From positions 11,800-75,799 of the forward strand of contig CAZIME010000003.1 of assembly GCA_964540395.1 (NCBI GenBank): DNA of 64,000 bases, in the 5' to 3' direction. Position numbers and translations under genes: made by a program. The notes beneath the pieces were generated by a model. That model was not told where the DNA came from. It saw only the letters and a list, made by a program, of their open reading frames with translations, and searched no databases. Source of the DNA: an uncultured Bifidobacterium sp. Its GTDB lineage: Bacteria; Actinomycetota; Acidimicrobiia; Acidimicrobiales; Ilumatobacteraceae. Of this stretch, positions 1-17,476 are shown piece by piece (the stretch's first letter is position 1; each line of letters opens with the position of its first letter).

Positions 1-265
1 TCCGGTTGCGCATGATGGCAACGACGATCCCGAGTCCAACGACGACCTCGGCCGCGGCGACGACGAGCACGAAGAGCACGATGCTCTGTCCGTCGATGTC
101 GAGCAGGCGCTTCGACAGCGCAACGAACGACAGGTTCACCGCGTTGAGCATCAATTCGATGCACATGAACATGACGAGCGGGTTGCGTCGCACGAGGACC
201 CCGACGGTGCCGATCGTGAACAGGAGCGCGGCGAGAACGAGATACCAGGTGGTCGTCGGTGTCAT
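1..265 (-). CDS. nuoK: NADH-quinone oxidoreductase subunit K (C-terminal end cut by window edge)
   Basis: Own translation of the minus strand gives [53 protein letters not shown]..., which is ND4L/NuoK-like. The ATG at 263-265 overlaps the nuoJ stop (ATGA). It is absent from the ORF track because it has no stop inside the window. Confidence 0.9.
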
Positions 266-807: not shown

Positions 808-811
808 GCGG

Positions 812-1468
812 CTACTTCATGCCTCGCCCGTCAGCGGTGGCCTGATCGGGCTCCGCGGCGCGCACCCCGTAACCCAGCTCGCCGGCCCATGACACCACTC
901 CTTCGAACGATGCATCGCCCGCCGGGGCGGTCGCGCGCATCCACGCCGACGTGTTCGCATCTTCGCCCGGGCGCCAGTCCTCCCACGGCAGGTGCTTCGG
1001 TTTGCCGTCGTCACCGACGAGGAGTTCTTCCTTCGTGTAGATCGCATCTCGGCGGTTCGTGAACGAGAACTCGAACAACTTCGTCTCGGTGATCGCCTCG
1101 GTCGGGCATGCCTCGACGCAGAGATCACAGTGGATGCAGCGCAGATAGTTGATCTCGTAGATCCAGCCGAAGCGCTCACCGGGGGACGTCGGCGAATCTG
1201 GATCATTGTCGCGGCCGCGGACGTGGATGCACTTCGCCGGACACACGGCGGCGCACAGTTCGCACCCGATGCACTTCTCCATGCCGTCCTCGTAACGGTT
1301 GAGGACATGACGACCGTGCAAGCGCTCCGGCTTGTCGATCTTCTCATCCATCACCTCGGCCTTCTTCTTGTTGCGTCGGAAGACGCGGCCGCCCGAGTAC
1401 TGGGTGGTGACGCGGTTCTTGCGACCGTGCTGCCGGAACGTGACGAGGAATCCGCCGAGGTAACCCAT
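812..1468 (-). CDS. nuoI: NADH-quinone oxidoreductase subunit I
   Basis: Track ORF 812..2320 trimmed to the ATG at 1466-1468 ([11 protein letters not shown]...), which touches the nuoH stop. It has two 4Fe-4S motifs, [12 protein letters not shown] and [12 protein letters not shown]. Confidence 0.93.
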
Positions 1469-2685
1469 CAGAACTGTGCTCCTTCCCGTGCTCGGGTGCG
1501 TGCACTGGTGGCGAAGGCGAGGCTGAGCATCGCGTAACACGCCGCGAGAACGACGACGGCAATGACCGTCGTTGTGACGACACTCCATCCCTCGCTGCGC
1601 GCGAGGCGTTGTGCGGCGAGCAGGAGGAACCAGCCGAGCGATGCCGGGATGAGAACCTTCCACCCGAAGTCCATGAGCTGGTCGTATCGCAGCCGCGGCA
1701 GCGACGCCCGGAACCACACGTAGGCGTAGAGGAAGACGAGCACCTTGAGTACGAGCCAGATCGTCCCCTCGAGTGCGTTCGGGATGAACGGAATGTCGAG
1801 GATGTAGCCGTTGATCGCGATCGGCTGCGGGCCTCCGAAGAACAGCGTGACGATGAGCGCCGACATCGTCACCGTGTTCATGAACTCGGCGAGGAAGAAC
1901 AACGAGAAGCGCAGCGCCGAGTACTCGGTGTTGAAGCCGCCGACGAGTTCCTGCTCGGCCTCGACGAGATCGAACGGAGGTCGGTTGAGCTCGGCCGTAG
2001 CTGCAATGAGGAAGATGACGAACGGAACGACCCCGGTGGTGACGACGTGCCACGTACCGAGTGTCGACTGTGCGGCCACGATGCCGCTCGTCGACAGTGT
2101 TCCCGCGGTGAGCAGCACGGAGGCGAGCGAGAGGCCGAGCGCCGCCTCGTACGACACCATCTGGGCCGATGCCCGCACCGAGCCGAGCAACGGGTACTTC
2201 GAGCCGCTCGACCACCCTGCGAGCATGATTCCATACACCGCGATCGACGAGATCGCGAGGGCGAACAGCACACCCACGTGCGGGTCCGCGAGTTGCACCC
2301 TCGTCTCGACTCCGAACCACGTGACGATGCCGTCATTGCCGTTGCGCCAGTCACCACCGAGCGGGATGATCGCGAACGCGAGGAACGCCGGGACGAACGA
2401 GAGGAACGGAGCGAGGGCGAATACGAACCGGTCAGCACGGCTCGGAATGATGTCTTCCTTGAAAAACAACTTGATTCCGTCGGCAAGTGTCTGCAGCAAG
2501 CCGAACGGACCGGCCTTGTTCGGACCGATGCGGTTCTGCATACCGGCGACGACCTTGCGCTCGAACCAGACCATGAGCATCGTTGCGACAAGACCCGCGA
2601 CGAACACGGCGAGCACCTTGATACCGACGATTGCGAGATTCTGCCAGCCGAAGTCGCCCTGCAGTGCGGGATCGAGCGCGATCAT
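1468..2685 (-). CDS. nuoH: NADH-quinone oxidoreductase subunit H
   Basis: Track ORF 1468..2775 trimmed to the ATG at 2683-2685 (MIALDPALQ...), with an ATGA overlap on the nuoG stop. It is a multi-TM ND1-like protein ([17 protein letters not shown]). Confidence 0.93.
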
Positions 2686-5060
2686 CGAACGACCTCGATG
2701 GTGACATCCGTGACGTCGGCAGCATGGTCGATGAGTTCGCGCACGTCGGGGCCGTTCTGGTGCAGCGGCACCCATACGGTCCCGCGCGGCACGCTGACAT
2801 CCGCGTGTGCCGGGAGCGACACCGACGTCCGCTGACTGACGAGTCGAACGTGCCCGCCGGCCGAGACACCCGCGTGCACCATGTCGGCCGGGTTGAGGAA
2901 CGCACGGGACTCACCGACGAGCGGTGCGAGCGACGCGCTGCGCGCGGTACCGACGGCTCCGTCGTACAACTCACGCGACACGACGAGTCTGTGGTGGAAG
3001 CCGAGGCGCTGCGCCGGTGTCCGCGACGAGCGCGACATCGTGACGGGTTGCGGGTGCACGACGACGACACCCTCCCGGCGCACGGCGCGCGCATCGGCGG
3101 TGGGAGCGAAAGCGGGAACGCCGGCGACGAGGGCCGCATGCGCATCGGCGTAGGTCGTGACGCCGAGATCGACACCGAGCTGGGCCGCGAGCTCGACGGC
3201 AATCATCCAGTCGGGGCGGGACATGCCCGTCGCCGTCACCTTCTGGGCGACATCGCTGACGCGACCCTCGAGGTTCGTCGTCGTACCGACCTTCTCACCG
3301 AAAGCCGCGGCGGCGAGTACGACATCGGCGCGGGCCACCGACTCGGTGTGGTGCGTATCGACGGCGATGACGCTGCCGACCCGGGCGAAGGCACGACGCG
3401 CGAGGTCGGCATCCGGTACGTCGCTGAGCGGATCGGCTCCGAGCAACACGAGGCACTCGATGCGTCCCGCGGCGGCGGCCTCGAGCATGCCCACGGTGTC
3501 GAGGCCGTTACCCCGCGGCGCCAGTCCGGCGAGAACTGCGCCGCGTACGTTGGCGCGGCGCAACACGGGAAGGACACGCGCATCGGGAGCGGCGGCAAAC
3601 ACTTCGGCGAGACCGTGCAGGACGAACTCGGCCGACTCGGCGAGATTCGTGCGTCCGACGACCACGGTGACGGCACCACGACGCAACTGCTCCGCAACGG
3701 CGGGGGTGGCCACGAGATCGCGCACCACTCGCGATTGATCACCGGATTCGCACGTGACCGACTGCCATGCGTAGGGAGTGAGACCCGACGCACGTGTCGT
3801 CACTTCGATGATGCGGGCGCGACGCTTCTGCGCGGCGTCCCGCAGGCGCAGATAGAGAACCGGCGCTTCTTCCTTGAGGTCGGGTGCGAGGAGGATGACG
3901 GTCGGCGAAGATGCCGCGTCGGCGATCGTGGCCTGCGGGAGCGCAAACACCTCGTTGGGCAATCCGTCGCCCAGGTGTGCATCACGATTGGTGATGCCGA
4001 CCGCTTCGGCGAGTCGGGACCACATGTACGCGTCCTCGTTGGTACCGCGTGCGCCGCCGATGATGCCGATCGCGTTCGCGCCTTTGGACTGATCCGACAG
4101 GGTCGTTCGCAGGATCCGACCGGCGCGCTCGAGTGCCGTCGCCCAGTTCGTTGCGACGAGTGCGTCGCCTTCCCGCACGAGCGGCGCCGTGATCCGATCG
4201 TCAGATCGCAGAGCTTCGAAGTTGAAGCGTCCCTTGTCGCACAGCCATCCCCAGTTCACCGATTCGACGTCGACACCTTGGTAACGCACGATCTCGTCGC
4301 GGCTGCTCTGGACGACGACGCGACAACCAACGGAGCACGTCGTGCACGTGCTCTCCACCTGCTCGAGGTCCCACGGGCGGGCCTTGAAACGGTACGGGGT
4401 TGCGGTGAGCGCGCCGACCGGGCAGATCTGCACCGTGTTGCCGGAGAAGTACGAACTGAACGGCTCGTCCGGGAAGGTCATCACCTGCGTGTTGTTACCG
4501 CGACTGGTGAACGAAATGAGTGGATCACCGGCGACCTCGTCGGCGAATCGCGTGCACCGGTCGCAGAGGATGCAACGCTCACGGTCGAGGTACACGAGTT
4601 CGCTGATCGGGATCGGCTTCTCGTAGTGGCGCTTTTCCTCGACGAATCGACTCTCGCCGGGTCCGTGCGAGAAGGCCTGGTCCTGCAGCGGACACTCGCC
4701 TCCCTTGTCACACACCGGGCAGTCGAGCGGATGGTTGGCGAGCAGCAACTCGAGCACGCCTTCCTGCGCCCGCTTCACGGTGTCACTGTTCGTCGTCACC
4801 GCCTGGCCCTCGGCCACCGGTGTCATGCACGACACCACCATCATCTTTCCGCGCGGACCGTCGACCTCGACGAGACACTGTCGGCACATTCCGACGGGCG
4901 TCATGCGCGGGTGGTAACAGAAGTGGGGAACGTACGAGCCGGCGTCCTGACACGCATCGATGACAAGTTGACCGGGCTGCGCTTCGTGCGCCCGACCGTC
5001 GATCGTCACCGAGACCGTCGTCTTCGGTGCCGCCGTTTCCGCTGCGGATGTGTCAGCCAT
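2682..5060 (-). CDS. nuoG: NADH-quinone oxidoreductase subunit G
   Basis: Start at MADTSAAE (ATG 5058-5060). N-terminal Fe-S Cys clusters are present (CYHPRMTPVGMCRQC, HPLDCPVCDKGGEC, CILCDRCTRF), followed by a molybdopterin-oxidoreductase-like body. Confidence 0.93.
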   Translation of the reverse strand: MADTSAAETAAPKTTVSVTIDGRAHEAQPGQLVIDACQDAGSYVPHFCYHPRMTPVGMCRQCLVEVDGPRGKMMVVSCMTPVAEGQAVTTNSDTVKRAQEGVLELLLANHPLDCPVCDKGGECPLQDQAFSHGPGESRFVEEKRHYEKPIPISELVYLDRERCILCDRCTRFADEVAGDPLISFTSRGNNTQVMTFPDEPFSSYFSGNTVQICPVGALTATPYRFKARPWDLEQVESTCTTCSVGCRVVVQSSRDEIVRYQGVDVESVNWGWLCDKGRFNFEALRSDDRITAPLVREGDALVATNWATALERAGRILRTTLSDQSKGANAIGIIGGARGTNEDAYMWSRLAEAVGITNRDAHLGDGLPNEVFALPQATIADAASSPTVILLAPDLKEEAPVLYLRLRDAAQKRRARIIEVTTRASGLTPYAWQSVTCESGDQSRVVRDLVATPAVAEQLRRGAVTVVVGRTNLAESAEFVLHGLAEVFAAAPDARVLPVLRRANVRGAVLAGLAPRGNGLDTVGMLEAAAAGRIECLVLLGADPLSDVPDADLARRAFARVGSVIAVDTHHTESVARADVVLAAAAFGEKVGTTTNLEGRVSDVAQKVTATGMSRPDWMIAVELAAQLGVDLGVTTYADAHAALVAGVPAFAPTADARAVRREGVVVVHPQPVTMSRSSRTPAQRLGFHHRLVVSRELYDGAVGTARSASLAPLVGESRAFLNPADMVHAGVSAGGHVRLVSQRTSVSLPAHADVSVPRGTVWVPLHQNGPDVRELIDHAADVTDVTIEVVR

Positions 5061-6405
5061 GGCTCGCCACCGCATGTCCGAAGATCGGTTCGACGCCGGC
5101 GATGGCGTGACCGTGCTCGACGTAGTGCTCGAACTCGTGACGGAAGCGCCGCACCGCCGAGGCGATAGGCGACACGGCCGACGGACCGAGCGGGCAGATC
5201 GTCGTCTGCCTGGGCGGCCACGCGATGCCGGGGCTGATGCTCTCGCTGATTTCCATGAGAAGGTCGATGTCCTGCGCGCGACCGTGTCCGTCGAGCATGC
5301 GCTTCAGCACCTTCTCCAACCAGTTCGTTCCCTCGCGGCACGGCGTGCACTTGCCGCAGGATTCGCGCGCAAAGAAGCGCACGATGCGCCAGCATGCGGC
5401 GACCATGTCGGTGGTCTCGTCCATGACGACGATCGCACCCGATCCGAGCATCGATCCGGCCTTGTCGACCGTCGGCTTGTCGAGCGGCATGTCGAGGTGC
5501 TCATCGAAGAACCACATTGCCGATGCGCCGCCGGGAATGAAGGCCTTCACCCGTCGTCCGCCGCGTACGCCACCGCAGTACTCGTCCGCCTCGAACAACA
5601 TGCGGAAGGTCGTCACGCCGTTCGGCACCTCGAACACGCCGGGACGCTTGACGTGTCCGCTCACCGCGAACATGCGCATGCCCGTCGACGTCGGCGCACC
5701 GATCTCCTTGAACGATGCGCCGCCGCGACCGACGATCCACGGAACGTTCGAGAGCGTCTCGACGTTGTTCACGATCGTCGGCTGCATGTACAGACCCTTC
5801 ACCGCCGGGAAGAACGGGGGCTTCAGGCGCGGCATACCACGCTCCCCTTCGAGGCTCTCGATGAGTGCCGTTTCCTCGCCGACGATGTAGGCGCCCGCTC
5901 CCCATGTGAGCGTGATGTCGGCGGAAAAACCCGAGCCGCACACGTTGCGTCCGATCATTCCGTTCGCATACGCATCGTTGATCGCCGCCGCGAGACGCTC
6001 CTGCGCGAGTGCCATTTCGCCACGTACGTAGAGGAACGCGTGCGGTGCGTTGAGTGCGTAACAGGCGAGCATGATGCCCTCGATGAGCTGGTGCGGGTCG
6101 CGCTCCATGAGCAGGCGGTCCTTGTACGTGCCGGGTTCGCTCTCGTCACCGTTGATGACGAGGTAGCGCGGGTGCACACCGGCCGGGAGGAACCCCCACT
6201 TCGTTCCGGCGGGAAAACCTGCTCCGCCGCGGCCCTGGATCTCGGCTGCCTTCACTTCATCGTGTACCTGCTGCGGCGTCATCGCCGTGACGGCCTTACG
6301 CAGCGCTTCGTATCCGCCGGTGCGCACGTAACCGTCGTACGTGTGACCATCGGCCTGATCGAATCGGGTGGTGATGAGTCGGGGTCCGGTCGGTACTGCG
6401 CTCAT
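5053..6405 (-). CDS. nuoF: NADH-quinone oxidoreductase subunit F
   Basis: Track ORF trimmed to the ATG at 6403-6405 (MSAVPTGPRL...), with an ATGA overlap on the nuoE stop. It has the GRGGAGFPAGTKWGF motif and ESCGKCTPCREG. Confidence 0.95.
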   Translation of the reverse strand: MSAVPTGPRLITTRFDQADGHTYDGYVRTGGYEALRKAVTAMTPQQVHDEVKAAEIQGRGGAGFPAGTKWGFLPAGVHPRYLVINGDESEPGTYKDRLLMERDPHQLIEGIMLACYALNAPHAFLYVRGEMALAQERLAAAINDAYANGMIGRNVCGSGFSADITLTWGAGAYIVGEETALIESLEGERGMPRLKPPFFPAVKGLYMQPTIVNNVETLSNVPWIVGRGGASFKEIGAPTSTGMRMFAVSGHVKRPGVFEVPNGVTTFRMLFEADEYCGGVRGGRRVKAFIPGGASAMWFFDEHLDMPLDKPTVDKAGSMLGSGAIVVMDETTDMVAACWRIVRFFARESCGKCTPCREGTNWLEKVLKRMLDGHGRAQDIDLLMEISESISPGIAWPPRQTTICPLGPSAVSPIASAVRRFRHEFEHYVEHGHAIAGVEPIFGHAVASHG

Positions 6406-6986
6406 CGTTCGTCGGCCTTTCGCTGTGCCTCGACTCCCGCATTGCTCCACTTGTCCGTGGTGCGTTGACGCACCGTGGCGAGGGTGCCGTGTGCCGGCAC
6501 GTCGCTGCGGCGTCCGGACGCGAGATCGTCGATGAGTGCGTCGAAGGATTTGGGCGTCACCTTGTACTCGTAGCGGTAGTTCACCTGCAGTGCCGGTGCC
6601 TCCGTGCACGCGGCGATGCACTCGACGTCCTCGAGTGTGAACTTCTCGTCGTCGGTCGTGCTGCCGGCCTTGATCCCCAGTTTCTCCTCGGCATGGTGAA
6701 GGAGATCCCACGCGCCGAGCAGCTGGCACGAGATGTTCGTGCACACGTTGATGCAGTAGCGACCGACGGGTTGGAACTTGAACATCTCGTAGAAACTCGC
6801 CGTTCCGTACACATCCGCCGCCGTGGTGCCGACGAGTTCGGCGATGTGCACCATCGCGTCCTGGGTGACGTAGCCGTCCTGTTCCTGGGCGAGATGGAGC
6901 AGCGGAATGGTTGCGGACTTGCGGCGCGGAAAACGCGCGATGATCTCGTGTGCGATCTCGACGTTGGCCGGCGACAGACGACTCAT
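6402..6986 (-). CDS. nuoE: NADH-quinone oxidoreductase subunit E
   Basis: Trimmed to the ATG at 6984-6986 (MSRLSPANVEIAHEII...), with an ATGA overlap on the nuoD stop. The 2Fe-2S Cys pattern is NVCTNISC ... ECIAACTEAP. Confidence 0.93.
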   Translation of the reverse strand: MSRLSPANVEIAHEIIARFPRRKSATIPLLHLAQEQDGYVTQDAMVHIAELVGTTAADVYGTASFYEMFKFQPVGRYCINVCTNISCQLLGAWDLLHHAEEKLGIKAGSTTDDEKFTLEDVECIAACTEAPALQVNYRYEYKVTPKSFDALIDDLASGRRSDVPAHGTLATVRQRTTDKWSNAGVEAQRKADER

Positions 6987-8326
6987 CGGTCGACCTCGCC
7001 GAGCACGGGATCGATGGACGAGATGACTGCGACGGCGTCGGCGACCAGACCGCCGCGCATCATGTGCGGCAGGCACTGGACATTGACGAAGCTCGGCGCG
7101 CGCACGTGCATGCGGTACGGGGTCGACGATCCGTCGCTGGCGATGTAGCAACCGATCTCGCCGCGCGGGGACTCGATCGCCACGTACACCTCGCCCTCGG
7201 GAACCTTGAATCCCTCGGTGAAGATCTTGAAGTGGTGGATGAGAGCTTCCATCGACTCGTCGATGCGACCGCGCGGGGGCGGCGTCACCTTCTTGTTCTG
7301 GATGCGGTAGTTGCCTGCGGGCATCCGGTCGAGGATCTGGCGCACGATGCGCATGGATTCGCGGATCTCCTGCAGTCGAATGGCGTACCGGTCGTACGCA
7401 TCGCCGTGCACTCCGACAACGACGTCGAACTCGACGTCGTTGTAACGGAGGTACGGCACGTCCTTGCGCAGGTCCCACGCGATACCCGTCGAGCGCAGGA
7501 TCGGCCCCGTGGCGGCGAGGGCGACGGCCTCGTCCTGGGTGATCACACCGACGCCCTGGAGACGTTCGCGCCAGATCGGCTGACCCGTCATCAAGACTTC
7601 GTATTCCTCGAGTCGGGGCGGAATCTCGTCGAGCAGATGGAGCACGTCGTCGCGCCATCCCGCCGGCAGGTCGGCGGCGAGACCACCGGGACGGATGAAG
7701 TTGTGGTTCATCCGCAGTCCGGTCACCTTCTGGAAGAAGCGCAGCACCTGCTCGCGTTCGCGCCAGCCGTACAACATCATCGACACGGCACCGAGGTCCA
7801 TGCCGTTCGTCGCCATGAACAGGAGGTGACTGCTCATGCGGTTGAGCTCCGACAGCAGCATGCGCATCCACACGGCACGCTCGGGGATGTCACCGTCGAT
7901 GCCGAGCAGTTTCTCGGTCGCCATCGAGAACACGAGTTCGTTGTTCAGCGGCGAGAGATAGTCCATGCGCGTTACGTTCGTTCCGCCCTGCATGAACGTC
8001 AGCGACTCGCCCGTCTTTTCCATGCCGGTGTGCAGGTAACCGATGATCGGCTTGCAGCGCAGCACCGTCTCGCCCTGGAGTTCGAGCATGAGTCGCAACA
8101 CGCCGTGGGTACTCGGATGCTGAGGACCCATGTTGATGATCATCGTCTGGTCCTCATCGGGATCCGTCCCCACCGAGGTGAGTGCAGCTGCATCGGCTTC
8201 ACTCATCCGCAGAACCGCACCGGACTCGCGCATGAGTTCCTTGTGGCCGACGATCGATCGTGGCTGGAGTTCCTGAGCACCCTCGGAGGTACCCGCGGAA
8301 ACGATGCGCGGTTCGACGGTCGTCAC
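6983..8326 (-). CDS. nuoD: NADH-quinone oxidoreductase subunit D
   Basis: GTG at 8324-8326 (VTTVEPRIV...) overlaps the nuoC stop. It carries the MGPQHPSTHGVLRL signature. Confidence 0.93.
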   Translation of the reverse strand: MTTVEPRIVSAGTSEGAQELQPRSIVGHKELMRESGAVLRMSEADAAALTSVGTDPDEDQTMIINMGPQHPSTHGVLRLMLELQGETVLRCKPIIGYLHTGMEKTGESLTFMQGGTNVTRMDYLSPLNNELVFSMATEKLLGIDGDIPERAVWMRMLLSELNRMSSHLLFMATNGMDLGAVSMMLYGWREREQVLRFFQKVTGLRMNHNFIRPGGLAADLPAGWRDDVLHLLDEIPPRLEEYEVLMTGQPIWRERLQGVGVITQDEAVALAATGPILRSTGIAWDLRKDVPYLRYNDVEFDVVVGVHGDAYDRYAIRLQEIRESMRIVRQILDRMPAGNYRIQNKKVTPPPRGRIDESMEALIHHFKIFTEGFKVPEGEVYVAIESPRGEIGCYIASDGSSTPYRMHVRAPSFVNVQCLPHMMRGGLVADAVAVISSIDPVLGEVDR

Positions 8327-8820
8327 GACGCCGCTCCCTTGAACTGCACGGGAATCCGGCCTTGCGCGTAATCCTTGCGCAACGGATGCCCCTCCCAATC
8401 CTCGGGCATGAGGATTCGCGTGAGGTCGGGGTGTCCGTCGAAACGGATGCCGAACATGTCGTACACCTCGCGCTCCATCGCCTCGGTTGCGGGATAAAGA
8501 TCGAACAACGACGCAACCGTCTCGCCGTCGGCAACCTGGGTGCGTACCCGGACGCGGCGTTTGTGCTGCAGCGAAAGCAGGTTGACGACGACCTCGAATC
8601 GCTCGGCCGTCACACCGACGGGTAGCGACCGCTGCGGGTGAACGAGGTAATCGACCGCGGTGAGGTCGACGCACATCTGGTAGCCGTCCTCGTACAGCCC
8701 GCGACAAAGGTTGAGGTGCTCGGTACGTGCGGCGTGCACGACGTGCTGACCGAAGCGCGTTTCGCTCGGGCAACCGTGCACGAGCACAGGGCTCGCCTGC
8801 GTCGTCGCGTCGTCGGACAC
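8323..8820 (-). CDS. nuoC: NADH-quinone oxidoreductase subunit C
   Basis: GTG at 8818-8820 lies just after the nuoB stop. It has the 30-kDa subunit motif EREVYDMFGIRFDGHPDLTRILMPEDWEGHPLRKDY. The start is uncertain. Confidence 0.88.
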   Translation of the reverse strand: MSDDATTQASPVLVHGCPSETRFGQHVVHAARTEHLNLCRGLYEDGYQMCVDLTAVDYLVHPQRSLPVGVTAERFEVVVNLLSLQHKRRVRVRTQVADGETVASLFDLYPATEAMEREVYDMFGIRFDGHPDLTRILMPEDWEGHPLRKDYAQGRIPVQFKGAAS

Positions 8821-8821
8821 G

Positions 8822-9406
8822 TCAGCGGCCCTGCAATGCGACGGGCACGGTGAGACCAGCGGGCACCTCTTGAATGTGGACGTCGGCGCCCGCGCCGGTC
8901 GCTGCACGGCGACGCATGATCTCGCCGTCCTCGATGAGCTGGTGCAGGGTTTCGATCGCATGGATGAGGGTCTCCGGTGTCGGTGGACAACCCGGTGCGT
9001 ACACGTCGACGGGGACGATCTGATCGACGCCCTGCACGATGGCGTAGTTGTTGAACATTCCGCCGCTGCTCGCGCAGACGCCCATAGAGATGACCCACTT
9101 CGGTTCCATCATCTGGTCGTACACCTGTCGCAGTACCGGGGCCATCTTCTGGCTGACGCGGCCGGCAACGATCATGATGTCGGCCTGGCGCGGTGACGCA
9201 CGGAACACTTCCATGCCGAAGCGGGCGATGTCGTAGTGCGGTGCCCCGGTGCCCATCATCTCGATGGCGCAACACGCAAGCCCGAACGTCGCACCCCAGC
9301 TTGAACGCGAACGCGACCACTTCACGAGATCCTCGATGCGACCGGTGAGGAAGTTGTGGCGCATCCCTCCGAGACCCTCGTCGGCAATGTCGCGCAGGAC
9401 GCTCAC
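8822..9406 (-). CDS. nuoB: NADH-quinone oxidoreductase subunit B
   Basis: GTG at 9404-9406 overlaps the nuoA stop; an alternative ATG ends at 9364. Motifs are [20 protein letters not shown] and APGCPP. Confidence 0.92.
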
Positions 9407-9873
9407 CGTGAACCCACCAGTTCGGAGTTGCGCTCGCGACCTTCGAGACCCACGATTCGTACGTTGCAACCGGGCTCGGCAACGACTCCGACGTCGACGA
9501 GAGGGGCATCCTTCTTTATCGGACCCCAATCGAGTGCACCACGCGCCACGACGTACACGAACGCAACGAAGAACACCGCGCTGAACGCGACGATCTCCCA
9601 GAAGACGAATGCACCGAGTTCACGTTGCGAAACGGCGTACGGGTAGGCAAAGACGATCTCGATGTCGAACATGATGAACAACATCGCAACGACGTAGAAC
9701 GACACCGGGAAGCGCTCGGGGGCCTCGCGACTCGGCACGATGCCGCATTCGTACGGCGCGAGCTTTGCGCTGTTCGGCCGACGCGGCGCGAGGAGCTTCG
9801 ATGCGACGATGCTGATTGCGCCGAATCCGATGGCAAGCACCATCAGCACGATGATCGGAAGATACTGACCCAC
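9403..9873 (-). CDS. nuoA: NADH-quinone oxidoreductase subunit A (with C-terminal extension)
   Basis: 156 aa, ND3-like (PYECG, FDIEIVF). About 35 extra hydrophilic residues follow the last TM. Confidence 0.9.
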
Positions 9874-9891
9874 GTGCCGCTGTGCCCCGGA

Positions 9892-10725
9892 TCAGACCTT
9901 GTCGAGTTCTCGGTCGAGTTCTCGCGCAGCAGCCAGGTTCTGGCGCAGGATGAGATCGCGACGGTGCAACATCCAGCACAGGATGAGGAAGATCAGCGTC
10001 GAGCCGAGCGTGATGAAAATCGCCGGCTGACGTTTGTTGCCGAGGTCGCGAATCATGTGCACGTAACGGCGGTCCTGCGTCTCGTCGATCTTCGGTCGCG
10101 AGGGGGCACGACCCGGTTCGACGCGCTGCGGAAGCACCGGGGCGACTTCGACGAGCGCGTAACGCGGCTCGTGGAAGAAGGCGAAGAAGTCGAGTGTCTC
10201 GTTGACCTTCGGCCAACGCTCGCCGCCGCGTTCGTAGACAGCGACAGAGACGAACTCACCGGCGTCGAATTCACCCGCCTCGTTGATGAGGATGACGTCC
10301 GACGAGGCGACTGCCTGACCACGCTGAGGGTCCGACTCTTCGAGGCGCACCCATCCGTCCGCTTCGAGCGCAGTGGCGACGTTCGCCGCGGTTTCCACCG
10401 GGGTGGCACCGGGCTGCACCGAACCTGCGACGATCTCGGCGTTCTGCAGGAGTCGTGCATCGCGCACGATCGTTGCCGGTTCGGCGGGCTGCCAGGTGGG
10501 TGAGGCACCGGTGAGACCGATTCCGTATATCCACCACACGGCTCCCATGATCGCCATCCAGCCGAAGAATCCGCCGAGGATGACGAGAATGCCGAGTCGG
10601 GCGCCGAGGTTCGAGCCGACGATGAGGTACGTGCCGCCGATGAGCGCCACCGCCATCGTGATGACGACGATGATTCCGCGGAGGGTCGGCTCCCAGTTGA
10701 TTGCGAGGAGTGTTGCCAACGTCAT
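9892..10725 (-). CDS. Integral membrane protein, family not recognised
   Basis: 277 aa with three N-terminal TM helices, a hydrophilic middle and one C-terminal TM. Its ATG directly abuts the TAA of the upstream cytochrome c gene, and it ends 18 bp before nuoA. Confidence 0.7.
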   Translation of the reverse strand: MTLATLLAINWEPTLRGIIVVITMAVALIGGTYLIVGSNLGARLGILVILGGFFGWMAIMGAVWWIYGIGLTGASPTWQPAEPATIVRDARLLQNAEIVAGSVQPGATPVETAANVATALEADGWVRLEESDPQRGQAVASSDVILINEAGEFDAGEFVSVAVYERGGERWPKVNETLDFFAFFHEPRYALVEVAPVLPQRVEPGRAPSRPKIDETQDRRYVHMIRDLGNKRQPAIFITLGSTLIFLILCWMLHRRDLILRQNLAAARELDRELDKV

Positions 10726-11799
10726 TTAGAGACCTCGCACGTAGTCAACGATTGCCGCGATCTGATCCTCGGTGAGCATGCCGCCGAATCCGGGCATGCG
10801 TCCGCCACCCTGACCTTGTTCGCCGTAACGCTTGCCGTACTCACTGCCGGCGGTGATGAACGCGATCATGTCGGCTCTGTTCGGGAACTGACGGATCGTC
10901 GAACCGCCCGTGAGGTTCGGTCCGAATGCACCGCCACCGGTGATCTGCGGTTCACCGTATGACCAGCCCTTGGTGTGGCAGCGGGCGCACGAGTACTGGC
11001 CGCCGCCGAGATCGAGGTTGAACAATGCTTCACCGAGGGATCCGTACGTGCCGGCCGCGACGAGGCGTTCGGCTTCTTCCTGGATCTGATCCTTCGTCGA
11101 CGCGGGCAGCGTTCCCCCGGCACACGTGCGCGGATCGGCGTCCGCCACGTCGCAGTTCTCGCGCGGCACCTGGATCGACTTCATGTATTCGATGATCGTC
11201 TGGATCTGTTGCTCGTTCAGCGGGCCACCACCGACGAGACCCCACGCCGACATCGGCGAGAACGGACGTCCGTAGTTGAGGATGAAGCGAACTTCTTCCT
11301 CGTCGAATCGCGAAAACACCGTGTTCAGGGCCGGGGCCTTCCAGTTCACCGACTTCACTTCCCCGGTCGTCGGGTCGGTGACGGCGTACGAGGCGACGCC
11401 ACCGGCACCGCTCATGCCGCCGTGACATCCCGCGCAATTGAAACCACCGTCGGCGGTCGAGGCAAAGAGTCCCGAACCCCAACGCTCGAACTTGTGCTGG
11501 AAGTCCTTCTCTGCACCGACCTGTCGACCCGGTTCGAGGATCCAGTACAGCGGCAGCGCGATCGTGAGTACGGCGAGGAAACCGAGACCGAGCAACTGGG
11601 TGCGCTCGAGCTTCTTTCCCTCGAGGATTTCGTCGTCGTAGTACGGCTTGCGGTTCGCCGCGAGCTCGATCTCCGAACCGATTTCCTTGCGGCTCGAACG
11701 GATGTTGAAGATGCCGTAGAGCGCCCAGCCGCCGAGAGCGACGAAGAGGACGATCCACGCGAGCGTGGTCGTGACGGCGGCGAGCAATGGTGCGTTCAT
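10726..11799 (-). CDS. Membrane-anchored dihaem cytochrome c
   Basis: Track ORF trimmed to the ATG at 11797-11799 (MNAPLLAAVTTTLAWIVLFVALGG..., a TM anchor). It has two haem c motifs, CAGCH and CARCH. Confidence 0.88.
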   Translation of the reverse strand: MNAPLLAAVTTTLAWIVLFVALGGWALYGIFNIRSSRKEIGSEIELAANRKPYYDDEILEGKKLERTQLLGLGFLAVLTIALPLYWILEPGRQVGAEKDFQHKFERWGSGLFASTADGGFNCAGCHGGMSGAGGVASYAVTDPTTGEVKSVNWKAPALNTVFSRFDEEEVRFILNYGRPFSPMSAWGLVGGGPLNEQQIQTIIEYMKSIQVPRENCDVADADPRTCAGGTLPASTKDQIQEEAERLVAAGTYGSLGEALFNLDLGGGQYSCARCHTKGWSYGEPQITGGGAFGPNLTGGSTIRQFPNRADMIAFITAGSEYGKRYGEQGQGGGRMPGFGGMLTEDQIAAIVDYVRGL

Positions 11800-11809
11800 G
11801 CCCGTGACC

Positions 11810-12649
11810 TCAGTGCGCGCCCGCGGCACCGACGCAATGCGGTCCCTCGGCTTCCTGTCCGGTGGTGTTCGTGCCGATCGGCGGGCCACCGAAAACGGTT
11901 CCCGTATCGATGATCACCTGGCCGTTGACGACGGAGATGCCGAAGTGGTCCATACCTCGCGGCGCCGGGCCGGCCTTCTTCTCACCGACGCGGTTGTACT
12001 GCGAGCCGTGGCACGGGCATTCGAACCACTGCGATGTCTCGCACACCGGCACGCGGCAACCGAGGTGCGGGCACTTCTGGTACGACGCGACGACTCCCGC
12101 CTGCATTCCGGCGAACACGGGAGCCTGACTGCCGTACGCAGCTTCGGCCTTTGCGAGCGATTCCTTCGGGTATTCCGACACCCACGAGCGCGCTTCGGGA
12201 AGGTACAAGAAACCCTTGTTCGAACGGATCGCGGCGATGACGTCGTCGATCTTGCCCGCATTGATCTTCGATCCGAATCCACCCGACGCACCTCGCCAGA
12301 GGAACGCGACGACCGCGGCACCGAAACCGCCGAGACCTGCGCTCATCAGGGTCACCGTCGCACGGTTGAAGAACTGACGACGCGACACGCCGATGACTTC
12401 GGGATCCGGCGGCGACCACGGGGCAACCTCAGCAGCCTTGGGAACCGCCACCGCCGTCGAGGTTGCGCGAGCGTTCACCGCAGCTGCTTCCGCCGCGCGT
12501 GACGCCTTGCGCGACACGCGATCACGCAACTTCGTCTCACGCGAAAGCACGCCCACTCGGTCGCGACGACGGGTCGCGGTGACGGCGATGACGACGCCGA
12601 GCACGAAGAGCACGGCGACTGCGATGGAAATGATGGTGATGCTGCTCAT
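11810..12649 (-). CDS. Rieske 2Fe-2S protein of a cytochrome bc/b6-type complex
   Basis: 279 aa with an N-terminal TM. Rieske boxes are CPHLGC and CPCHGS. Confidence 0.9.
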   Translation of the reverse strand: MSSITIISIAVAVLFVLGVVIAVTATRRRDRVGVLSRETKLRDRVSRKASRAAEAAAVNARATSTAVAVPKAAEVAPWSPPDPEVIGVSRRQFFNRATVTLMSAGLGGFGAAVVAFLWRGASGGFGSKINAGKIDDVIAAIRSNKGFLYLPEARSWVSEYPKESLAKAEAAYGSQAPVFAGMQAGVVASYQKCPHLGCRVPVCETSQWFECPCHGSQYNRVGEKKAGPAPRGMDHFGISVVNGQVIIDTGTVFGGPPIGTNTTGQEAEGPHCVGAAGAH

Positions 12650-12661
12650 GGTGACCGCCGA

Positions 12662-13396
12662 TCAGAGCTCGAAGAAGATTCCGTCACGCCACGGGAACGT
12701 GAAGTTGAAGCCGGGACCGCGGAAGAACGAGCCAATGATGACGAGGATCGCCCAGAACATCATGTGAACCGTCATCAGACTCGTGATGAACTTGCGGTCT
12801 TCGGGTTTGTTCGACGGGTTGCGATCGAGGTACGGCGCGAACATCAACGCGATGAGTCCCATTCCCGGGATGGTGACGCCCGCGATCATCGGATGGAACA
12901 TCGTGAGCAGTTCCTGCAGCCCGAGGAAGTACCACGGGGCCTTCGACGGGTTCGGGGTCGCATTGAAGTTCGCTGCCTGCAGCAACGGCGCGTTGACGAA
13001 CCACGAGAACATGAACGTGAATGCGAGGCACGCGAGCGCGGCGACGAACTCGACGGACAGCAGGTGCGGCCACGTGTGCACCTTGTCGACCGGCACGGCC
13101 TTCACGTCCTGGATCGATCCCGACTTAACAACGGTGAGCAGGCGCTGGGTGTGACCTCCGGGGCCGGCACCCATCGGTACGCCACCGCCGACGGGGGCAG
13201 CAACGACCGGAGCCTTCGGTGCGTCGGCAACGGCGACGCCGCCGGCACGGGCAGCCTTCGAACGATCGAGGAGTTCCTGCGGGATGCGCGACGCGCCGGC
13301 ACTCTGCGCCGACGACGCGTCGTCACCGCCGGTCGATGCGGCCTTTTCGCGGGCCGCTTGGGCGCGCTTGAGAAGGTGTTCGGGGATCTCCGTCAT
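12662..13396 (-). CDS. Cytochrome b C-terminal half (subunit IV / PetD-like) with a long N-terminal extension
   Basis: 244 aa with three TM helices. The Qo-region motif is KAPWYFLGLQELL (PEWY-equivalent). About 100 hydrophilic residues precede the first TM. Confidence 0.85.
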   Translation of the reverse strand: MTEIPEHLLKRAQAAREKAASTGGDDASSAQSAGASRIPQELLDRSKAARAGGVAVADAPKAPVVAAPVGGGVPMGAGPGGHTQRLLTVVKSGSIQDVKAVPVDKVHTWPHLLSVEFVAALACLAFTFMFSWFVNAPLLQAANFNATPNPSKAPWYFLGLQELLTMFHPMIAGVTIPGMGLIALMFAPYLDRNPSNKPEDRKFITSLMTVHMMFWAILVIIGSFFRGPGFNFTFPWRDGIFFEL

Positions 13397-13420
13397 GGTC
13401 GTTGGGCTCCTTTCACCGGC

Positions 13421-14206
13421 TCACAGCGGTCCGGAAATTCCGCCGTCCTTGCGGACGCGCCAGAAGTGAATGGCGAGGAAGATCACCGTGACGAACGGGA
13501 ACAAGATGACGTGGAGTACGTACCAACGCAACAGCGTTTCCGGTCCGATCTCGGTTCCGCCGAGGAGCACGAACCGCACCTGCGATCCGATCACCGGTGA
13601 GTAGCCCATCATGTTCGTTCCCACTGCGACTGCCCACAGTGCGAGCTGGTCCCACGGCAACAGGTAGCCGGTGAACGACAGCAGCAAGGTGAGCGTGAGG
13701 AGGATGACGCCGACGACCCAGTTGAACTCGCGGGGTGCCTTGTATGCGCCGTGGTAGAAGACGCGCGCCATGTGGAGGAACACCGAGAGGACCATGAGGT
13801 GCGCGCCCCAGCGGTGCATGTTGCGCACCATGAGGCCGAAGGTCACCGACGTGTGCAACGACTGGATGTCGTCCCACGCGTTGGCGGCGGTCGGACGGTA
13901 GAAGAACATCAGGAAAATGCCCGTAATCGTGAGCAAAATGAACAGGAAGAAGGAAAGCCCGCCGAGACACAGCGTGTAGCTCACCTTCACCGCGTGTCGC
14001 TTCACCTTCACCGGGTGGAGGTGGTACAGCACCGAGTTCATGACGACGTACGAACGGTTGCGCGGTGAATCGGTGTATCCCTTGCGGAAGATCGAACCGG
14101 GGCGGAAGATGGAGTTCCACACCTGGCTGCCCTGCAGGGACTCGTTCACCTTGGCAATGCGCTCCTTCAGCGAAGGGCGGGGCTTTTCTTCAACGACGCT
14201 GGCCAT
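13421..14206 (-). CDS. Cytochrome b6-like protein (N-terminal four-helix half of cytochrome b)
   Basis: 261 aa. The haem ligand pairs are H130-x13-H144 and H231-x14-H246. It also has YTLCLGG (Cys80). Confidence 0.9.
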   Translation of the reverse strand: MASVVEEKPRPSLKERIAKVNESLQGSQVWNSIFRPGSIFRKGYTDSPRNRSYVVMNSVLYHLHPVKVKRHAVKVSYTLCLGGLSFFLFILLTITGIFLMFFYRPTAANAWDDIQSLHTSVTFGLMVRNMHRWGAHLMVLSVFLHMARVFYHGAYKAPREFNWVVGVILLTLTLLLSFTGYLLPWDQLALWAVAVGTNMMGYSPVIGSQVRFVLLGGTEIGPETLLRWYVLHVILFPFVTVIFLAIHFWRVRKDGGISGPL

Positions 14207-14217
14207 GAATCGCTCCT

Positions 14218-14631
14218 TTAGAACCGCATCCCGTAGGCGTAACCGTGATTGTTCGTGCGCGCGTGGGGGTCACCGTTTGCCGGTGCCACACCGACCTTGC
14301 CCAACACGATGACGCCGGTCGGGCAACGGTCGACGCACAGTGCGCATCGCGTGCAGATGTCGTCGTCGATGACGAACACGACGTGGTCGGAGGGATCGGC
14401 GCCGGGCATCTCGGTGCCGGTCGATTCGACGACGGCTCCCGGGTTCACCATGTGGATGCACTTCCACGGGCAGATGTCGACGCAGCCCTCGCACATGATG
14501 CATTCGCTCTGATCGATGTGGATGAACTGCTTCGGCTTCACTGCCTTGCTGAGGTAGTCGGCATCGACCTCGACGAGGTGGTACTCGTCGGTGAACGGCA
14601 TCATCGGCGGATTGGCATCAGTGCGAGTCAC
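14218..14631 (-). CDS. 2[4Fe-4S] ferredoxin-like protein
   Basis: 137 aa with no TM or signal peptide. Motifs are CIMCEGCVDICP and CTRCALCVDRCP. Confidence 0.85.
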   Translation of the reverse strand: MTRTDANPPMMPFTDEYHLVEVDADYLSKAVKPKQFIHIDQSECIMCEGCVDICPWKCIHMVNPGAVVESTGTEMPGADPSDHVVFVIDDDICTRCALCVDRCPTGVIVLGKVGVAPANGDPHARTNNHGYAYGMRF

Positions 14632-14637
14632 GGTCGA

Positions 14638-15114
14638 TCACCCCTTCCTCACGAGCGGACGGCCATACGTGCTGGTCGGCAGGGCCTTCGGCTTCTGTTC
14701 GCCGCGCTTCTGCCACCAAGCAAACAGGTAAATCATCAGGCCGATGTAGAAGGCGTGGATGACGATGACGATGATGTCGCGAATCGCCTCGTAAGAAATG
14801 GTGAAGGCGAAGGGGCCCCCGAGTTCCTGGGGCTTCAGGAGATCGAAGGGTCCGAAGATGATCTTGTCCTTGCGCCAGCCGAGATCCTTGTCGGCATGGT
14901 CGATCCATTGGTGGGGCACGACTCCGAAGGCAAGGAACAACACGAAGAAGGCGTACGCGGAACCGAACATCGCCTCACCCCACGTCGCCTTGCGGTCGGA
15001 GCGACGGCGCTTGCCGACGGGAATGATGACGAGAGCGAGGGCGGTGGTGATGATGAACGAGAAGAGGAACGCCTGGTTCATCCCCGGCCATCTCAGAACG
15101 TCGACTGCCAACAT
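14638..15114 (-). CDS. Small integral membrane protein, family not recognised
   Basis: 158 aa with 3-4 hydrophobic helices. It is the first gene of the string; an alternative ATG ends at 15081 (MNQAFLF...). Confidence 0.65.
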   Translation of the reverse strand: MLAVDVLRWPGMNQAFLFSFIITTALALVIIPVGKRRRSDRKATWGEAMFGSAYAFFVLFLAFGVVPHQWIDHADKDLGWRKDKIIFGPFDLLKPQELGGPFAFTISYEAIRDIIVIVIHAFYIGLMIYLFAWWQKRGEQKPKALPTSTYGRPLVRKG

Positions 15115-15298: not shown

Positions 15299-16123
15299 AT
15301 GACCGAAGTACCCGATTATCTCCTCAAGCGCTCGCGCGACCGGCGCGCGGTTCTGCAGGGTGGAACTCCGTCCGCCGACGCACCCGCCGCATCGAGCGCA
15401 GCCGTTGAAAAGGCGACGAGTTCGTCCGCTGCACCCGCCGTCGCAGCAGAGCCGACTCCTCCGCCGCCCCCGAAACCCGATCCTGCATACGTCGTTGCGG
15501 CAAAGACCCGCAAGAAGATTCCGTTCTGGGCAATGGCCACGCTGAGTTTGTTGCCGTTGTGGGCATTTCTCTATCTCCTCGCATTGTCGCCGCAGGAAGA
15601 AACCGTCGAAGGTCCGATGGCCATCGGTGCCGAGGTCTACGGATCGTGCGCAAGCTGCCACGGTGCCGCCGGACAGGGCGGTGCGGGTCGCATTCTCCAC
15701 GAAGGCGAAGTACTCCTCACCTTCCCGCACATCGAAGACATGCTGAACTTCGTCTACACGGGCAGCCAGCCGTACGTATCGGCCGGACTCAACGTGTACG
15801 GCAACCCCGAGCGCGAAGGTGGCGTGCACGCGCCGTTGTCGTACAACGGCAACGCGATGCCGTCACAGGGTGCCAAGTGGGGCGGCGGTCTCACCGAGTA
15901 CGAAATTCTCGGCGTCGTGTGCCACGTGCGCTACGCCATTTCGGGTGCCGATCCGGCGAGCGAGGAATGGCTCGAGGAATACGAGCGGTGGTGCTCACCG
16001 GAATCGGAGATCTTCGCCGGACTGCAGGACGGAACGACGACGTTCGACACGGTCGCCGACACGTTCAACATGCTCGAGAATCCGCCGCGCATCGTCGGCA
16101 CCGAAGCGCGCGCGTCGAAGTAA
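15299..16123 (+). CDS. Membrane-anchored monohaem cytochrome c
   Basis: 274 aa with an Ala/Pro-rich linker, one TM (IPFWAMATLSLLPLWAFLYLLAL) and a single CASCH motif. Confidence 0.85.
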   Translation: MTEVPDYLLKRSRDRRAVLQGGTPSADAPAASSAAVEKATSSSAAPAVAAEPTPPPPPKPDPAYVVAAKTRKKIPFWAMATLSLLPLWAFLYLLALSPQEETVEGPMAIGAEVYGSCASCHGAAGQGGAGRILHEGEVLLTFPHIEDMLNFVYTGSQPYVSAGLNVYGNPEREGGVHAPLSYNGNAMPSQGAKWGGGLTEYEILGVVCHVRYAISGADPASEEWLEEYERWCSPESEIFAGLQDGTTTFDTVADTFNMLENPPRIVGTEARASK

Positions 16124-16222: not shown

Positions 16223-17476
16223 ATGACGACCCCCGATTCGTCGCGCGTACTCGTCATCGGTGCGGGTCCGGGCGGTGCGGCGATGGGTTACTGGCTCGCC
16301 CGGCACGGCCACGACGTCACCCTCGTCGAGAAGAAGCACTTTCCCCGCGACAAGACGTGCGGTGACGGCCTCACCCCACGTGCCGTGAAGCAACTCGAGG
16401 ACATGGGGCTCACCGACGCGTTGTCGAAGCACCATCGTTACGACGGACTTCGCGCCACGGCCCACGGTCGGCAACTCGAGTTGCAGTGGCCGAGCCATCC
16501 GATCTATCCGCAGCACGGCTACGTCGTGCGACGCCGCGACCTCGACATGATGGTCGCGCACAATGCCCGCGATGCCGGCGCCACGTTGCTCGAGGGACAC
16601 GAAGCCACCCAGCCGATCGTCGAGCGAGGGTGCGTGCGCGGAGCGGTCGTGCGCGATCTCGATCGCGACGTCACGACGGAGATGCGCGCCGACTACGTCG
16701 TCATCGCCGACGGGGCGAACAGCCGGTTCGGACGGTCGCTCGGGACGTCGCGCACGAAGGAATGGCCGTACGGCACCGCGATTCGCACGTACTGGCAGAG
16801 TCCGCGCCATGCCGACCCGTGGATCGAATCGGCCCTCGACGTGAAGGATCGCAACGGCGACTCGATGCCGGGCTACGGATGGATCTTCCCCGTCGGCGAC
16901 GGCACGATCAACGTCGGTGTCGGACTTCTCTCCACCTTCAAGAACTTCCGCCAGGTGAACACGTCGCATCTGCTCGATTCGTACGCGCACATGATCGCCG
17001 ATACGTGGGGCATCGATCCGTCGTCACCCGAATGCCGGGCGACGAGCGGCAAGATTCCGATGGGCGGATCGGTTTTCCCGAAGCAAGGTGCAACGCACCT
17101 CGTCATCGGTGATGCAGCAGGCAGTGTGAACCCCTTCAACGGCGAGGGCATCGACTATGCGTACGAAACTGCGCGCATCGGTGCCGACGTTCTGCACGAG
17201 GCGATCATGACGAACGACGCCACGATTCTCACCCGTTACCCGACGTTGCTCGATGCCGAGTACGGGCAGTACTTCAAGGTGGCCCGCCTGTTCGCGCGGG
17301 TGATCGGGCGACCGGCGCTCATGCGCGAACTGTCGCGCGTCGGAATTCGCAGCCACACGCTCATGGAATGGGTGCTGCGTATCATGGCCAACTTGTTGCG
17401 ACCCGACGAGCGCGGTCCTGCTGAAGTTGCGTACAAGATGGCTGCGGCGATCGTGCGCCTCGCGCCGAACGCCTGA
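16223..17476 (+). CDS. Geranylgeranyl reductase family FAD-dependent oxidoreductase (possible menaquinone side-chain reductase)
   Basis: 417 aa. It has the VLVIGAGPGGAAMGYWLARHGHDVTLVEKK dinucleotide fold and CGDGLTPRA. Confidence 0.85.
   Translation: MTTPDSSRVLVIGAGPGGAAMGYWLARHGHDVTLVEKKHFPRDKTCGDGLTPRAVKQLEDMGLTDALSKHHRYDGLRATAHGRQLELQWPSHPIYPQHGYVVRRRDLDMMVAHNARDAGATLLEGHEATQPIVERGCVRGAVVRDLDRDVTTEMRADYVVIADGANSRFGRSLGTSRTKEWPYGTAIRTYWQSPRHADPWIESALDVKDRNGDSMPGYGWIFPVGDGTINVGVGLLSTFKNFRQVNTSHLLDSYAHMIADTWGIDPSSPECRATSGKIPMGGSVFPKQGATHLVIGDAAGSVNPFNGEGIDYAYETARIGADVLHEAIMTNDATILTRYPTLLDAEYGQYFKVARLFARVIGRPALMRELSRVGIRSHTLMEWVLRIMANLLRPDERGPAEVAYKMAAAIVRLAPNA

Follow-up and report, generated by a model that had tools for sequence, protein, structure and literature searches.

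A two-cluster ferredoxin gene in the b6-type Rieske/cytochrome b operon of Actinomycetota and its product as a candidate accessory n-side subunit of complex III

A 64,000-nucleotide stretch of contig CAZIME010000003.1 (positions 11,800 to 75,799 of the forward strand; hereafter the window, in whose numbering positions are given) comes from the genome of a freshwater actinobacterium of the Ilumatobacteraceae and carries a small ferredoxin gene inside a Rieske/cytochrome b operon. We consider it somewhat better than an even chance (probability about 0.55) that the 137-residue product is a bound, accessory and dispensable iron–sulphur (Fe-S) subunit, which docks on the N-terminal arm of subunit IV at the cytoplasmic (n) side of the organism's sole complex III. 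This reading draws on the conserved position of the gene and the selection acting on it, on the decay of a motif in the subunit IV arm of lineages that have lost the ferredoxin, and on homology with a domain that occupies the corresponding place in Chloroflexota operons.

RESULTS

The gene is intact and under strong purifying selection

14218..14631, minus strand: 2×[4Fe-4S] ferredoxin-like protein, 137 aa (two cluster motifs, Pfam, homologues and dN/dS)

The open reading frame starts with GTG behind a strong Shine-Dalgarno sequence (GAGGAAGGGG). It lies 6 bp from the stop of the gene for a 158-residue membrane protein (14638) and is followed after 11 bp, with AGGAG inside the spacer, by the start of the cytochrome b6 gene (14206). 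Both CxxCxxCxxxCP motifs of the product are complete, the first being C44-x2-C47-x2-C50-x3-C54-P55 (DNA 14467–14502) and the second C93-x2-C96-x2-C99-x3-C103-P104 (DNA 14320–14355). Direct reading of the protein sequence revealed no hydrophobic segment, twin-arginine motif or signal sequence; the grand average of hydropathy is −0.07 and the isoelectric point (pI) 4.9. A first-pass annotation of the window, made from the sequence letters and a list of reading frames, had described a 137-residue protein with two motifs, no signal peptide or membrane segment and gaps of 11 and 6 bp, and every one of these details is correct. In Pfam, the protein matches Fer4 (41.9 bits, cut-off 21.1), Fer4_7 (39.8, cut-off 27) and Fer4_10 (41.9, cut-off 25.5) with E values of 7e-11 to 6e-10, all above the gathering cut-offs. 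By its motifs and domain matches, the 137-residue protein is a predicted 2×[4Fe-4S] dicluster ferredoxin.

Homologues number more than 2000 at 90% clustering, and in 116 aligned sequences the eight cluster cysteines and a ninth cysteine in CPWxC are invariant. The ratio of non-synonymous to synonymous substitution rates (dN/dS), determined against 93%-identical relatives, is about 0.05; this equals the value of the cytochrome b6 gene and is two to three times below those of subunit IV, the Rieske protein, the cytochrome c and both membrane proteins of the operon. The reading frame is not a chance one, because of these numerous homologues, the invariant cluster ligands and the low dN/dS. The homologues carry the taxon names Ilumatobacteraceae or Acidimicrobiia, and their protein names in the databases are generic or, wrongly, NuoI or PreA.

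Open frames of 365–366 residues that would fuse the ferredoxin to cytochrome b6 (genomes G160 and G238) were rejected, as a stop codon is present in the translated copy (G160). Apparent fusions with the membrane protein (P0291 and P0104) contain a frameshifted stretch between the parts and are artefacts of long-read assemblies. As a separate observation, the C-terminal tail of the ferredoxin ends in GYAYGMRF (window 14218–14260). The pattern GY(A/S)YG(M/V/L)R(F/W/L/M) is kept in all 14 aligned ferredoxins of Acidimicrobiia, whereas those of other families have unrelated tails.

The best NCBIfam match of the ferredoxin is NuoI (TIGR01971), at 41 bits far under the cut-off of 113. Identification as NuoI by the TIGR01971 and PRK05888 models was rejected on this score and because the gene lies outside the nuo operon, in which a canonical NuoI is encoded separately (about window 812–1480, minus strand). 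The genome also encodes a second small ferredoxin of 92 residues, a single-cluster type with CTGDGLCVDHCP (G000:C9; L171 1285–1563, minus strand). Since both proteins are present separately, the 137-residue protein is neither of them. A PDB sequence search with the ferredoxin returned generic polyferredoxin and NuoI only, and no bc-type complex with such a subunit. In our literature searches, the small ferredoxin of this actinobacterial operon was not described in any paper found.

The ferredoxin gene follows the cytochrome b6 gene across the phylum

The first-pass annotation proposed a functional tie between the ferredoxin and the b6-type complex and suggested examining whether the two genes stay adjacent in other genomes. 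We fetched 80 species-level Acidimicrobiia genome loci via the ferredoxin and judged gene order as far as each contig reaches. The order was the same in 80 of 80, namely menJ and a cytochrome c gene (divergent), membrane protein, ferredoxin, cytochrome b6, subunit IV, Rieske protein, dihaem cytochrome c, membrane protein and nuoA. We also cut out 40 loci that represent about 25 additional families of the phylum. Without exception, the ferredoxin gene of these 40 stands directly 5′ of those for cytochrome b6, subunit IV and the Rieske protein, with a cytochrome c gene next in most. The adjacency is thus strongly conserved.

Presence of the ferredoxin also tracks the b6-type cytochrome b among 401 sampled genomes of the phylum. 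A ferredoxin match was found in 166, about 157 of them strong; the other nine or so are weak (E near 1e-9) and occur in genomes with another cytochrome b type. Within families, ferredoxin and orthologous cytochrome b6 were counted equally often (17 of 19 genomes in family f20, 8 of 10 in f21, 18 of 21 in f23 and 21 of 22 in f27). Two families of the window's own order have neither the ferredoxin nor the orthologous cytochrome b6, and a distant cytochrome b instead.

Several lineages have lost the ferredoxin and kept the operon

Comparison of the two genome tables identified loss candidates as genomes with the orthologous cytochrome b6 and no ferredoxin. In family f57, 22 of 35 genomes have the ferredoxin. 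Three f57 genomes, G164 (on one complete contig), G177 and G229, have cytochrome b6 45–91 bp behind the homologue of the 158-residue membrane protein, with no ferredoxin and no remnant between them. The operon of G203, in the same family, likewise has no ferredoxin, and its upstream gene is not resolved. The best matches to the ferredoxin profile elsewhere in these f57 genomes reach 32–44 bits, compared with 170–183 for true orthologues of the same family. In G325, of family f14, a gene for a 130-residue membrane protein runs straight into cytochrome b6, where its relative G092 has the ferredoxin between. No copy of the ferredoxin was found elsewhere in these five genomes.

In a tree of cytochrome b6 and the C-terminal part of subunit IV, G177 and G203 are sister to the ferredoxin-bearing G419 (support 96/97) and G164 and G229 group apart (support 100/99). 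It follows from this placement that there were at least two losses in f57, in addition to one in f14. Neither the haem ci cysteine of cytochrome b6 nor the APWY motif has changed in the loss lineages. Hence, in a minority of lineages, the ferredoxin is cleanly absent from otherwise identical operons, the very observation that the first-pass annotation had named as a refutation of its proposal. Its further suggestion that the 158-residue membrane protein is a dedicated docking subunit for the ferredoxin is not supported, since homologues of this protein are kept in operons without the ferredoxin.

A motif in the arm of subunit IV decays with loss of the ferredoxin

13109..13153, minus strand: subunit IV arm motif HTQRLLTVVKSGSIQ, residues 82–96 (alignment of ferredoxin-bearing and ferredoxin-less operons)

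When the operon proteins of ferredoxin-bearing members of f57 were aligned with those of ferredoxin-less members, a motif appeared in the arm of subunit IV. About 12 residues separate it from the TWPHL with which the first membrane helix begins. It reads HTQRLLTVVKSGSIQ in this window, QRLLAVVKPEAIQ in f14 and HTHRLLAMVPPTGIQ in f57 and related families. The strict pattern [QH]R[LM]L[TA]xV is present in 106 of 109 ferredoxin-bearing loci throughout the phylum, the three misses being a V-to-I change, a V-to-G change and one assembly frameshift. None of the four ferredoxin-less loci has it; these read GLEATGAATPGEGSQ, RRRLGLTTPPGIQ, RRQMPLAPPSGVQ and TRRLEMAQPSGTQ. The motif decayed twice, since the two f57 loss groups are separate on the tree and one of them is sister to G419, which bears the ferredoxin and retains the motif (HTHRLLAMVPPSGIQ). 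Other columns that separate the two kinds of operon, in the N-terminus of cytochrome b6 and the C-terminus of the membrane protein, were set aside: families other than f57 do not conserve them, and they may merely reflect clade membership.

The arm shares the n-side with haems bH and ci, and were it the docking site of the ferredoxin, just such decay of the motif would be expected; we take it as the candidate docking site. The first-pass annotation had placed the contact between ferredoxin and complex at the n-side. Docking there fits both the motif decay and the homology with a Chloroflexota Fe-S domain described below. The losses, which show the ferredoxin to be dispensable, weigh against the proposal, which is thus supported in part.

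A homologous two-cluster domain stands beside cytochrome b in Chloroflexota operons

Large Fe-S flavoproteins have been reported in operons of this cytochrome b subfamily by Dibrova et al. (PMC5600118) and in the anammox literature. In the anammox Rieske/cytochrome b complexes of Kuenenia (Kuste4569–4574 and Kustd1480–1485), an NAD(P) oxidoreductase Fe-S subunit is placed on the n-side (PMC12954380, PMC5600118). A 2025 paper modelled its Fe-S chain directly under haems bN and cN and stated, citing earlier work, that all subunits of the Kuenenia complex co-migrate (PMC12954380).

Operons with a comparable large protein were present among our loci. Locus L182 (G066:C78:1-10492), on a contig binned with an actinobacterial genome, encodes, in order, a 644-residue NAD(P)-type Fe-S flavoprotein, a 521-residue multihaem cytochrome c, a cytochrome b without the haem ci cysteine, subunit IV with APWY and a Rieske protein. 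The 644-residue protein contains Fer4_20 and a pyridine-nucleotide oxidoreductase domain, with a two-cluster domain at its C-terminus. This module was rejected as an actinobacterial operon of anammox type; its relatives, at 72–95% identity, are named Chloroflexi or Anaerolineae, and the contig is probably a bin contaminant. On two Anaerolineae contigs (L185 and L186), a 669-residue homologue overlaps the start of the cytochrome b gene by 4 bp and is followed by subunit IV with APWY, a Rieske protein and a dihaem cytochrome c. Gene order agrees with that of the actinobacterial operon, and the place of the small ferredoxin is taken by the C-terminal domain of the large protein.

Profile alignment by hhalign matched the ferredoxin family to the C-terminal domain of the 644–669-residue flavoproteins with probabilities of 98.8–99.3% (E 8e-17 to 4e-20), over 74–75 ungapped columns, with an equal inter-cluster spacer of 38 residues and the extra cysteine of CPxxC in both. 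The score was 114–120 for this domain, as against 83 for the organism's own NuoI, whose alignment requires gaps. The flavoprotein part had no match in 130 operon loci and none clearly in this genome, and Pfam finds neither a Pyr_redox nor a Fer4_20 domain in the 137-residue ferredoxin. In Chloroflexota, subunit IV reads KTYALVEL(V/M) at an equal distance from the first membrane helix, a weak hint that the arm contact may predate the split of the two forms.

The actinobacterial operon resembles the anammox and Chloroflexota type in its split cytochrome b with the same N-terminal extension and in the APWY motif of subunit IV. Moreover, it shares a homologous two-cluster domain directly before cytochrome b with the Chloroflexota operons, whose sequences were used in this comparison. 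It differs in that the two-cluster module stands alone, without an FAD, NAD(P) or Fer4_20 domain, and in that its cytochrome b keeps the haem ci cysteine, where that of Chloroflexota has FGLG. The operon thus has a homologous two-cluster module beside cytochrome b and does not encode an FAD/NAD(P) Fe-S subunit of the anammox type.

The operon encodes a b6-type complex of the APWY clade

14638..15114, minus strand: membrane protein, 158 aa, without family assignment, first gene of the operon (profile scans)
13421..14206, minus strand: cytochrome b6-like protein, 261 aa (Pfam Cytochrome_B)
12662..13396, minus strand: subunit IV-like protein, 244 aa (Pfam Cytochrom_B_C)
11810..12649, minus strand: Rieske [2Fe-2S] protein, 279 aa (Pfam Rieske)
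10726..11889, minus strand: membrane-anchored dihaem cytochrome c, 387 aa (CxxCH at residues 152 and 301)
9892..10725, minus strand: membrane protein, 277 aa, without family assignment, last gene before nuoA (profile scans)

These genes are co-directional with the ferredoxin gene, which is the second of the series, and lead into nuoA and the rest of the nuo operon. Cytochrome b6 has the CxGG cysteine of haem ci as C80 in YTLCLGG (DNA 13967–13969) and an n-side N-terminal extension of about 45 residues. The CxGG motif is likewise present in 122 ferredoxin-bearing and 5 ferredoxin-less cytochrome b6 sequences. Subunit IV has the Qo motif APWY at residue 153 (SKAPWYFLGLQE) and a cytoplasmic N-terminal arm of about 100 residues, and the Rieske protein has the twin-arginine motif RRQFF and the cluster ligand boxes CPHLGC and CPCH. 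As judged from these genes, with split cytochrome b and Rieske protein in one operon, APWY and CxGG, the complex is a b6-type Rieske/cytochrome b complex of the APWY clade with a predicted haem ci.

Divergent to the operon are genes for a 274-residue monohaem cytochrome c and for a MenJ-like geranylgeranyl-type reductase (16223–17476), the latter scoring 337 bits on NF045655, under the cut-off of 700. Subunit IV (MTEIPEHLLKRAQAARE, 13334–13396) and the divergent monohaem cytochrome c (MTEVPDYLLKRSRDRR, 15299–15361) have an N-terminal peptide in common. In Acidimicrobiia, the complex III genes continue unbroken into nuoA-N on the same strand (window 9403–15114 and 1–9873), and no nuoA was found within 7 kb of the operon in the loci outside this class. 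The upstream neighbours of the operon are hemL and a thioredoxin-like ResA/TlpA gene in f57 (L140, L152–L155) and a CcsA-like cytochrome c assembly gene in f14 (L117, L156); through these neighbours, the operon is linked to genes of haem and cytochrome c maturation.

The genome is 1.64 Mb in size and 93% complete. It has one cytochrome b gene and one haem-copper oxidase locus, and neither cytochrome bd nor a 2-oxoacid:ferredoxin oxidoreductase was found in the 93%-complete assembly. Given a single cytochrome b, a single haem-copper oxidase locus and no cytochrome bd, no path from menaquinol to cytochrome c and oxygen is visible other than that through the b6-type complex. There is also no evident source of reduced ferredoxin, since the 2-oxoacid:ferredoxin oxidoreductase was not found.

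DISCUSSION

Relation to known systems

The APWY clade of cytochrome b was defined by Kao and Hunte in 2014 (PMC4122944) and corresponds approximately to subfamily G of Dibrova et al. (PMC5600118). Ilumatobacter was listed among the few Actinobacteria with split cytochrome b, and according to the authors no member of the clade had been characterised (PMC4122944). Neither paper, in cataloguing the cytochromes b, refers to a small ferredoxin gene of Actinomycetota (PMC4122944, PMC5600118). The complex shares with the cytochrome b6f and b6c complexes, the latter of Bacillota and Heliobacteria, the split into b6 and subunit IV and the CxGG cysteine for haem ci, and the best solved-structure matches of its cytochrome b are b6 chains (E 4e-49). 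It differs from them in its APWY Qo motif, its dihaem cytochrome c acceptor and the long n-side extensions on cytochrome b and subunit IV, and the b6f and b6c complexes have no operon-encoded Fe-S subunit of this kind. For b6f, electron transfer from ferredoxin to haem cn is a long-standing proposal (PMC5600118).

As to the ferredoxin itself, NuoI (Nqo9) of complex I and PsaC of photosystem I are bound 2×[4Fe-4S] subunits with which it shares a long inter-cluster spacer and terminal extensions, and CPxxC occurs both in it and in this genome's own NuoI. We also compared the operon with the Geobacter ExtOPQ system of selenite and tellurite reduction (PMC5877670). The ExtP model, with a cut-off of 290 bits, recognises cytochrome b at 304.9 bits, whereas subunit IV reaches only 51.2 bits on the ExtQ model, under the cut-off of 150. 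The porin, rhodanese and multihaem genes of the Ext context are not found in the window, and the Ext cluster as described has no ferredoxin (PMC5877670). Assignment as an Ext cluster was rejected on these grounds.

A proposed peripheral subunit on the n-side

In the arrangement that we favour, the ferredoxin would sit peripherally on the cytoplasmic side of a b6-type quinol:cytochrome c oxidoreductase with the APWY Qo motif. It would dock on the N-terminal arm of subunit IV, beside the n-side haems bH and ci, and its two [4Fe-4S] clusters would form a short wire between these haems and the cytoplasm. Such a subunit would correspond, as a protein of its own, to the C-terminal two-cluster domain of the flavoprotein, and may act as a side port outside the Q-cycle core, by which electrons could leave to a soluble acceptor or enter, in either direction. 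A redox role appears likelier than a purely structural one, because the clusters are intact and selection is strong. The loss lineages, the decaying arm motif and the positional homology make physical association more likely and do not bear on the function of the clusters.

Several points weigh against this reading. At least three lineages have lost the ferredoxin and kept the rest of the operon, and the core complex evidently works without it: clean deletions from otherwise intact operons mean that the Q-cycle core does not need the ferredoxin. These losses show dispensability for the core enzyme; they do not show that the ferredoxin is unconnected to the complex. The correlation with the arm motif rests on two loss lineages of one family, and the third loss (G325) is outside the scoring, as subunit IV is absent from its assembly. 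The likeness to the Chloroflexota domain is only moderately better than that to NuoI. The AlphaFold2 (AF2) monomer of the ferredoxin, predicted from the 116-sequence alignment, is too poor for use (mean local confidence, pLDDT, 53; predicted TM-score, pTM, 0.37). The protein is small, acidic and hydrophilic, like free carriers. Finally, in our survey within the phylum the ferredoxin family is found only in Actinomycetota, and the conserved synteny may stem from a single ancestral event.

The ferredoxin may instead be freely soluble and merely co-transcribed with complex III, serving as a transient, diffusible carrier for the complex or for other enzymes. Its composition (pI 4.9), the lack of an anchor and the clean loss from retained operons in several lineages are in accordance with such a carrier, and the low-confidence AF2 monomer gives no sign of a binding surface. 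However, a general carrier would not follow one operon so strictly, and its constraint would not match that of cytochrome b6. A second small ferredoxin is encoded in the genome, in which no 2-oxoacid oxidoreductase that reduces ferredoxin was found; moreover, the long inter-cluster spacer and terminal extensions resemble those of bound types, NuoI and FwdF, and the subunit IV arm decays when the ferredoxin is lost. We therefore hold a soluble carrier to be possible but doubtful. If the protein is bound but electrons bypass its clusters, as they do N7 in complex I, it would be a structural or evolutionary relic of a former large Fe-S flavoprotein subunit. Positional homology to the Chloroflexota domain, the want of a flavoprotein partner in the operon loci or, clearly, in this genome, and the repeated losses would all suit a relic, but the invariant cluster ligands and a dN/dS as low as that of cytochrome b6 indicate more constraint than is expected of one, and we regard this explanation as quite unlikely.

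Since the ferredoxin gene always directly precedes a cytochrome b6 gene with the haem ci cysteine, its product might also be a maturation factor, for example for haem ci attachment or another cofactor insertion, that is absent from the finished enzyme. We know of no haem ci attachment machinery in Bacillota. Nevertheless, ferredoxin-less operons retain the CxGG cysteine, the homologous Chloroflexota domain accompanies a cytochrome b without it, and profile scans found no similarity to known maturation systems, which leaves such a factor with a slim chance. Slimmer still is that of an electron donor to the divergent MenJ-like reductase. Such a role would parallel the ferredoxin-dependent geranylgeranyl reductases of archaea, and every Acidimicrobiia locus has the menJ-like gene at most 2 kb from the operon; outside this class, however, no menJ-like gene occurs within 7 kb, yet the adjacency of ferredoxin and cytochrome b6 persists.

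A separate issue is what electrons the bound ferredoxin would carry. The first-pass annotation had thought of transfer from ferredoxin to quinone, or of a bifurcating or confurcating arrangement. That catabolic transfer from ferredoxin to quinone should be the main role here is made less likely by the failure to find a 2-oxoacid:ferredoxin oxidoreductase and by the position of the enzyme as the sole complex III. It is conceivable, though we think it rather unlikely, that the two clusters are a working third electron port of a b6-type complex with haem ci. In an outward variant, quinol oxidation at Qo would push a low-potential electron via bL, bH and ci onto the Fe-S subunit and so provide a low-potential reductant in an aerobe. 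In an inward variant, the Fe-S subunit would pass cytoplasmic electrons through haem ci to menaquinone; if true, this would be a natural, genetically fixed form of the long-debated ferredoxin:quinone reductase route of b6f.

Implications

Rieske/cytochrome b complexes are textbook three-subunit enzymes, and to our knowledge only the anammox complexes, themselves little understood, depart from this by carrying an Fe-S module on the n-side. Our reading suggests that a cut-down, two-cluster module is standard in the housekeeping complex III of many Actinomycetota other than Actinomycetia (166 of 401 sampled genomes), including abundant freshwater and soil lineages. These organisms would offer a tractable system for the function of an n-side Fe-S wire beside haem ci, in which the loss lineages are natural knock-outs and the subunit IV arm motif is a specific and testable candidate docking site. 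If electrons do pass through the clusters, this would bear on the route from ferredoxin to haem cn in b6f and on the NAD(P)H-generating bifurcation that has been proposed for the anammox complexes.

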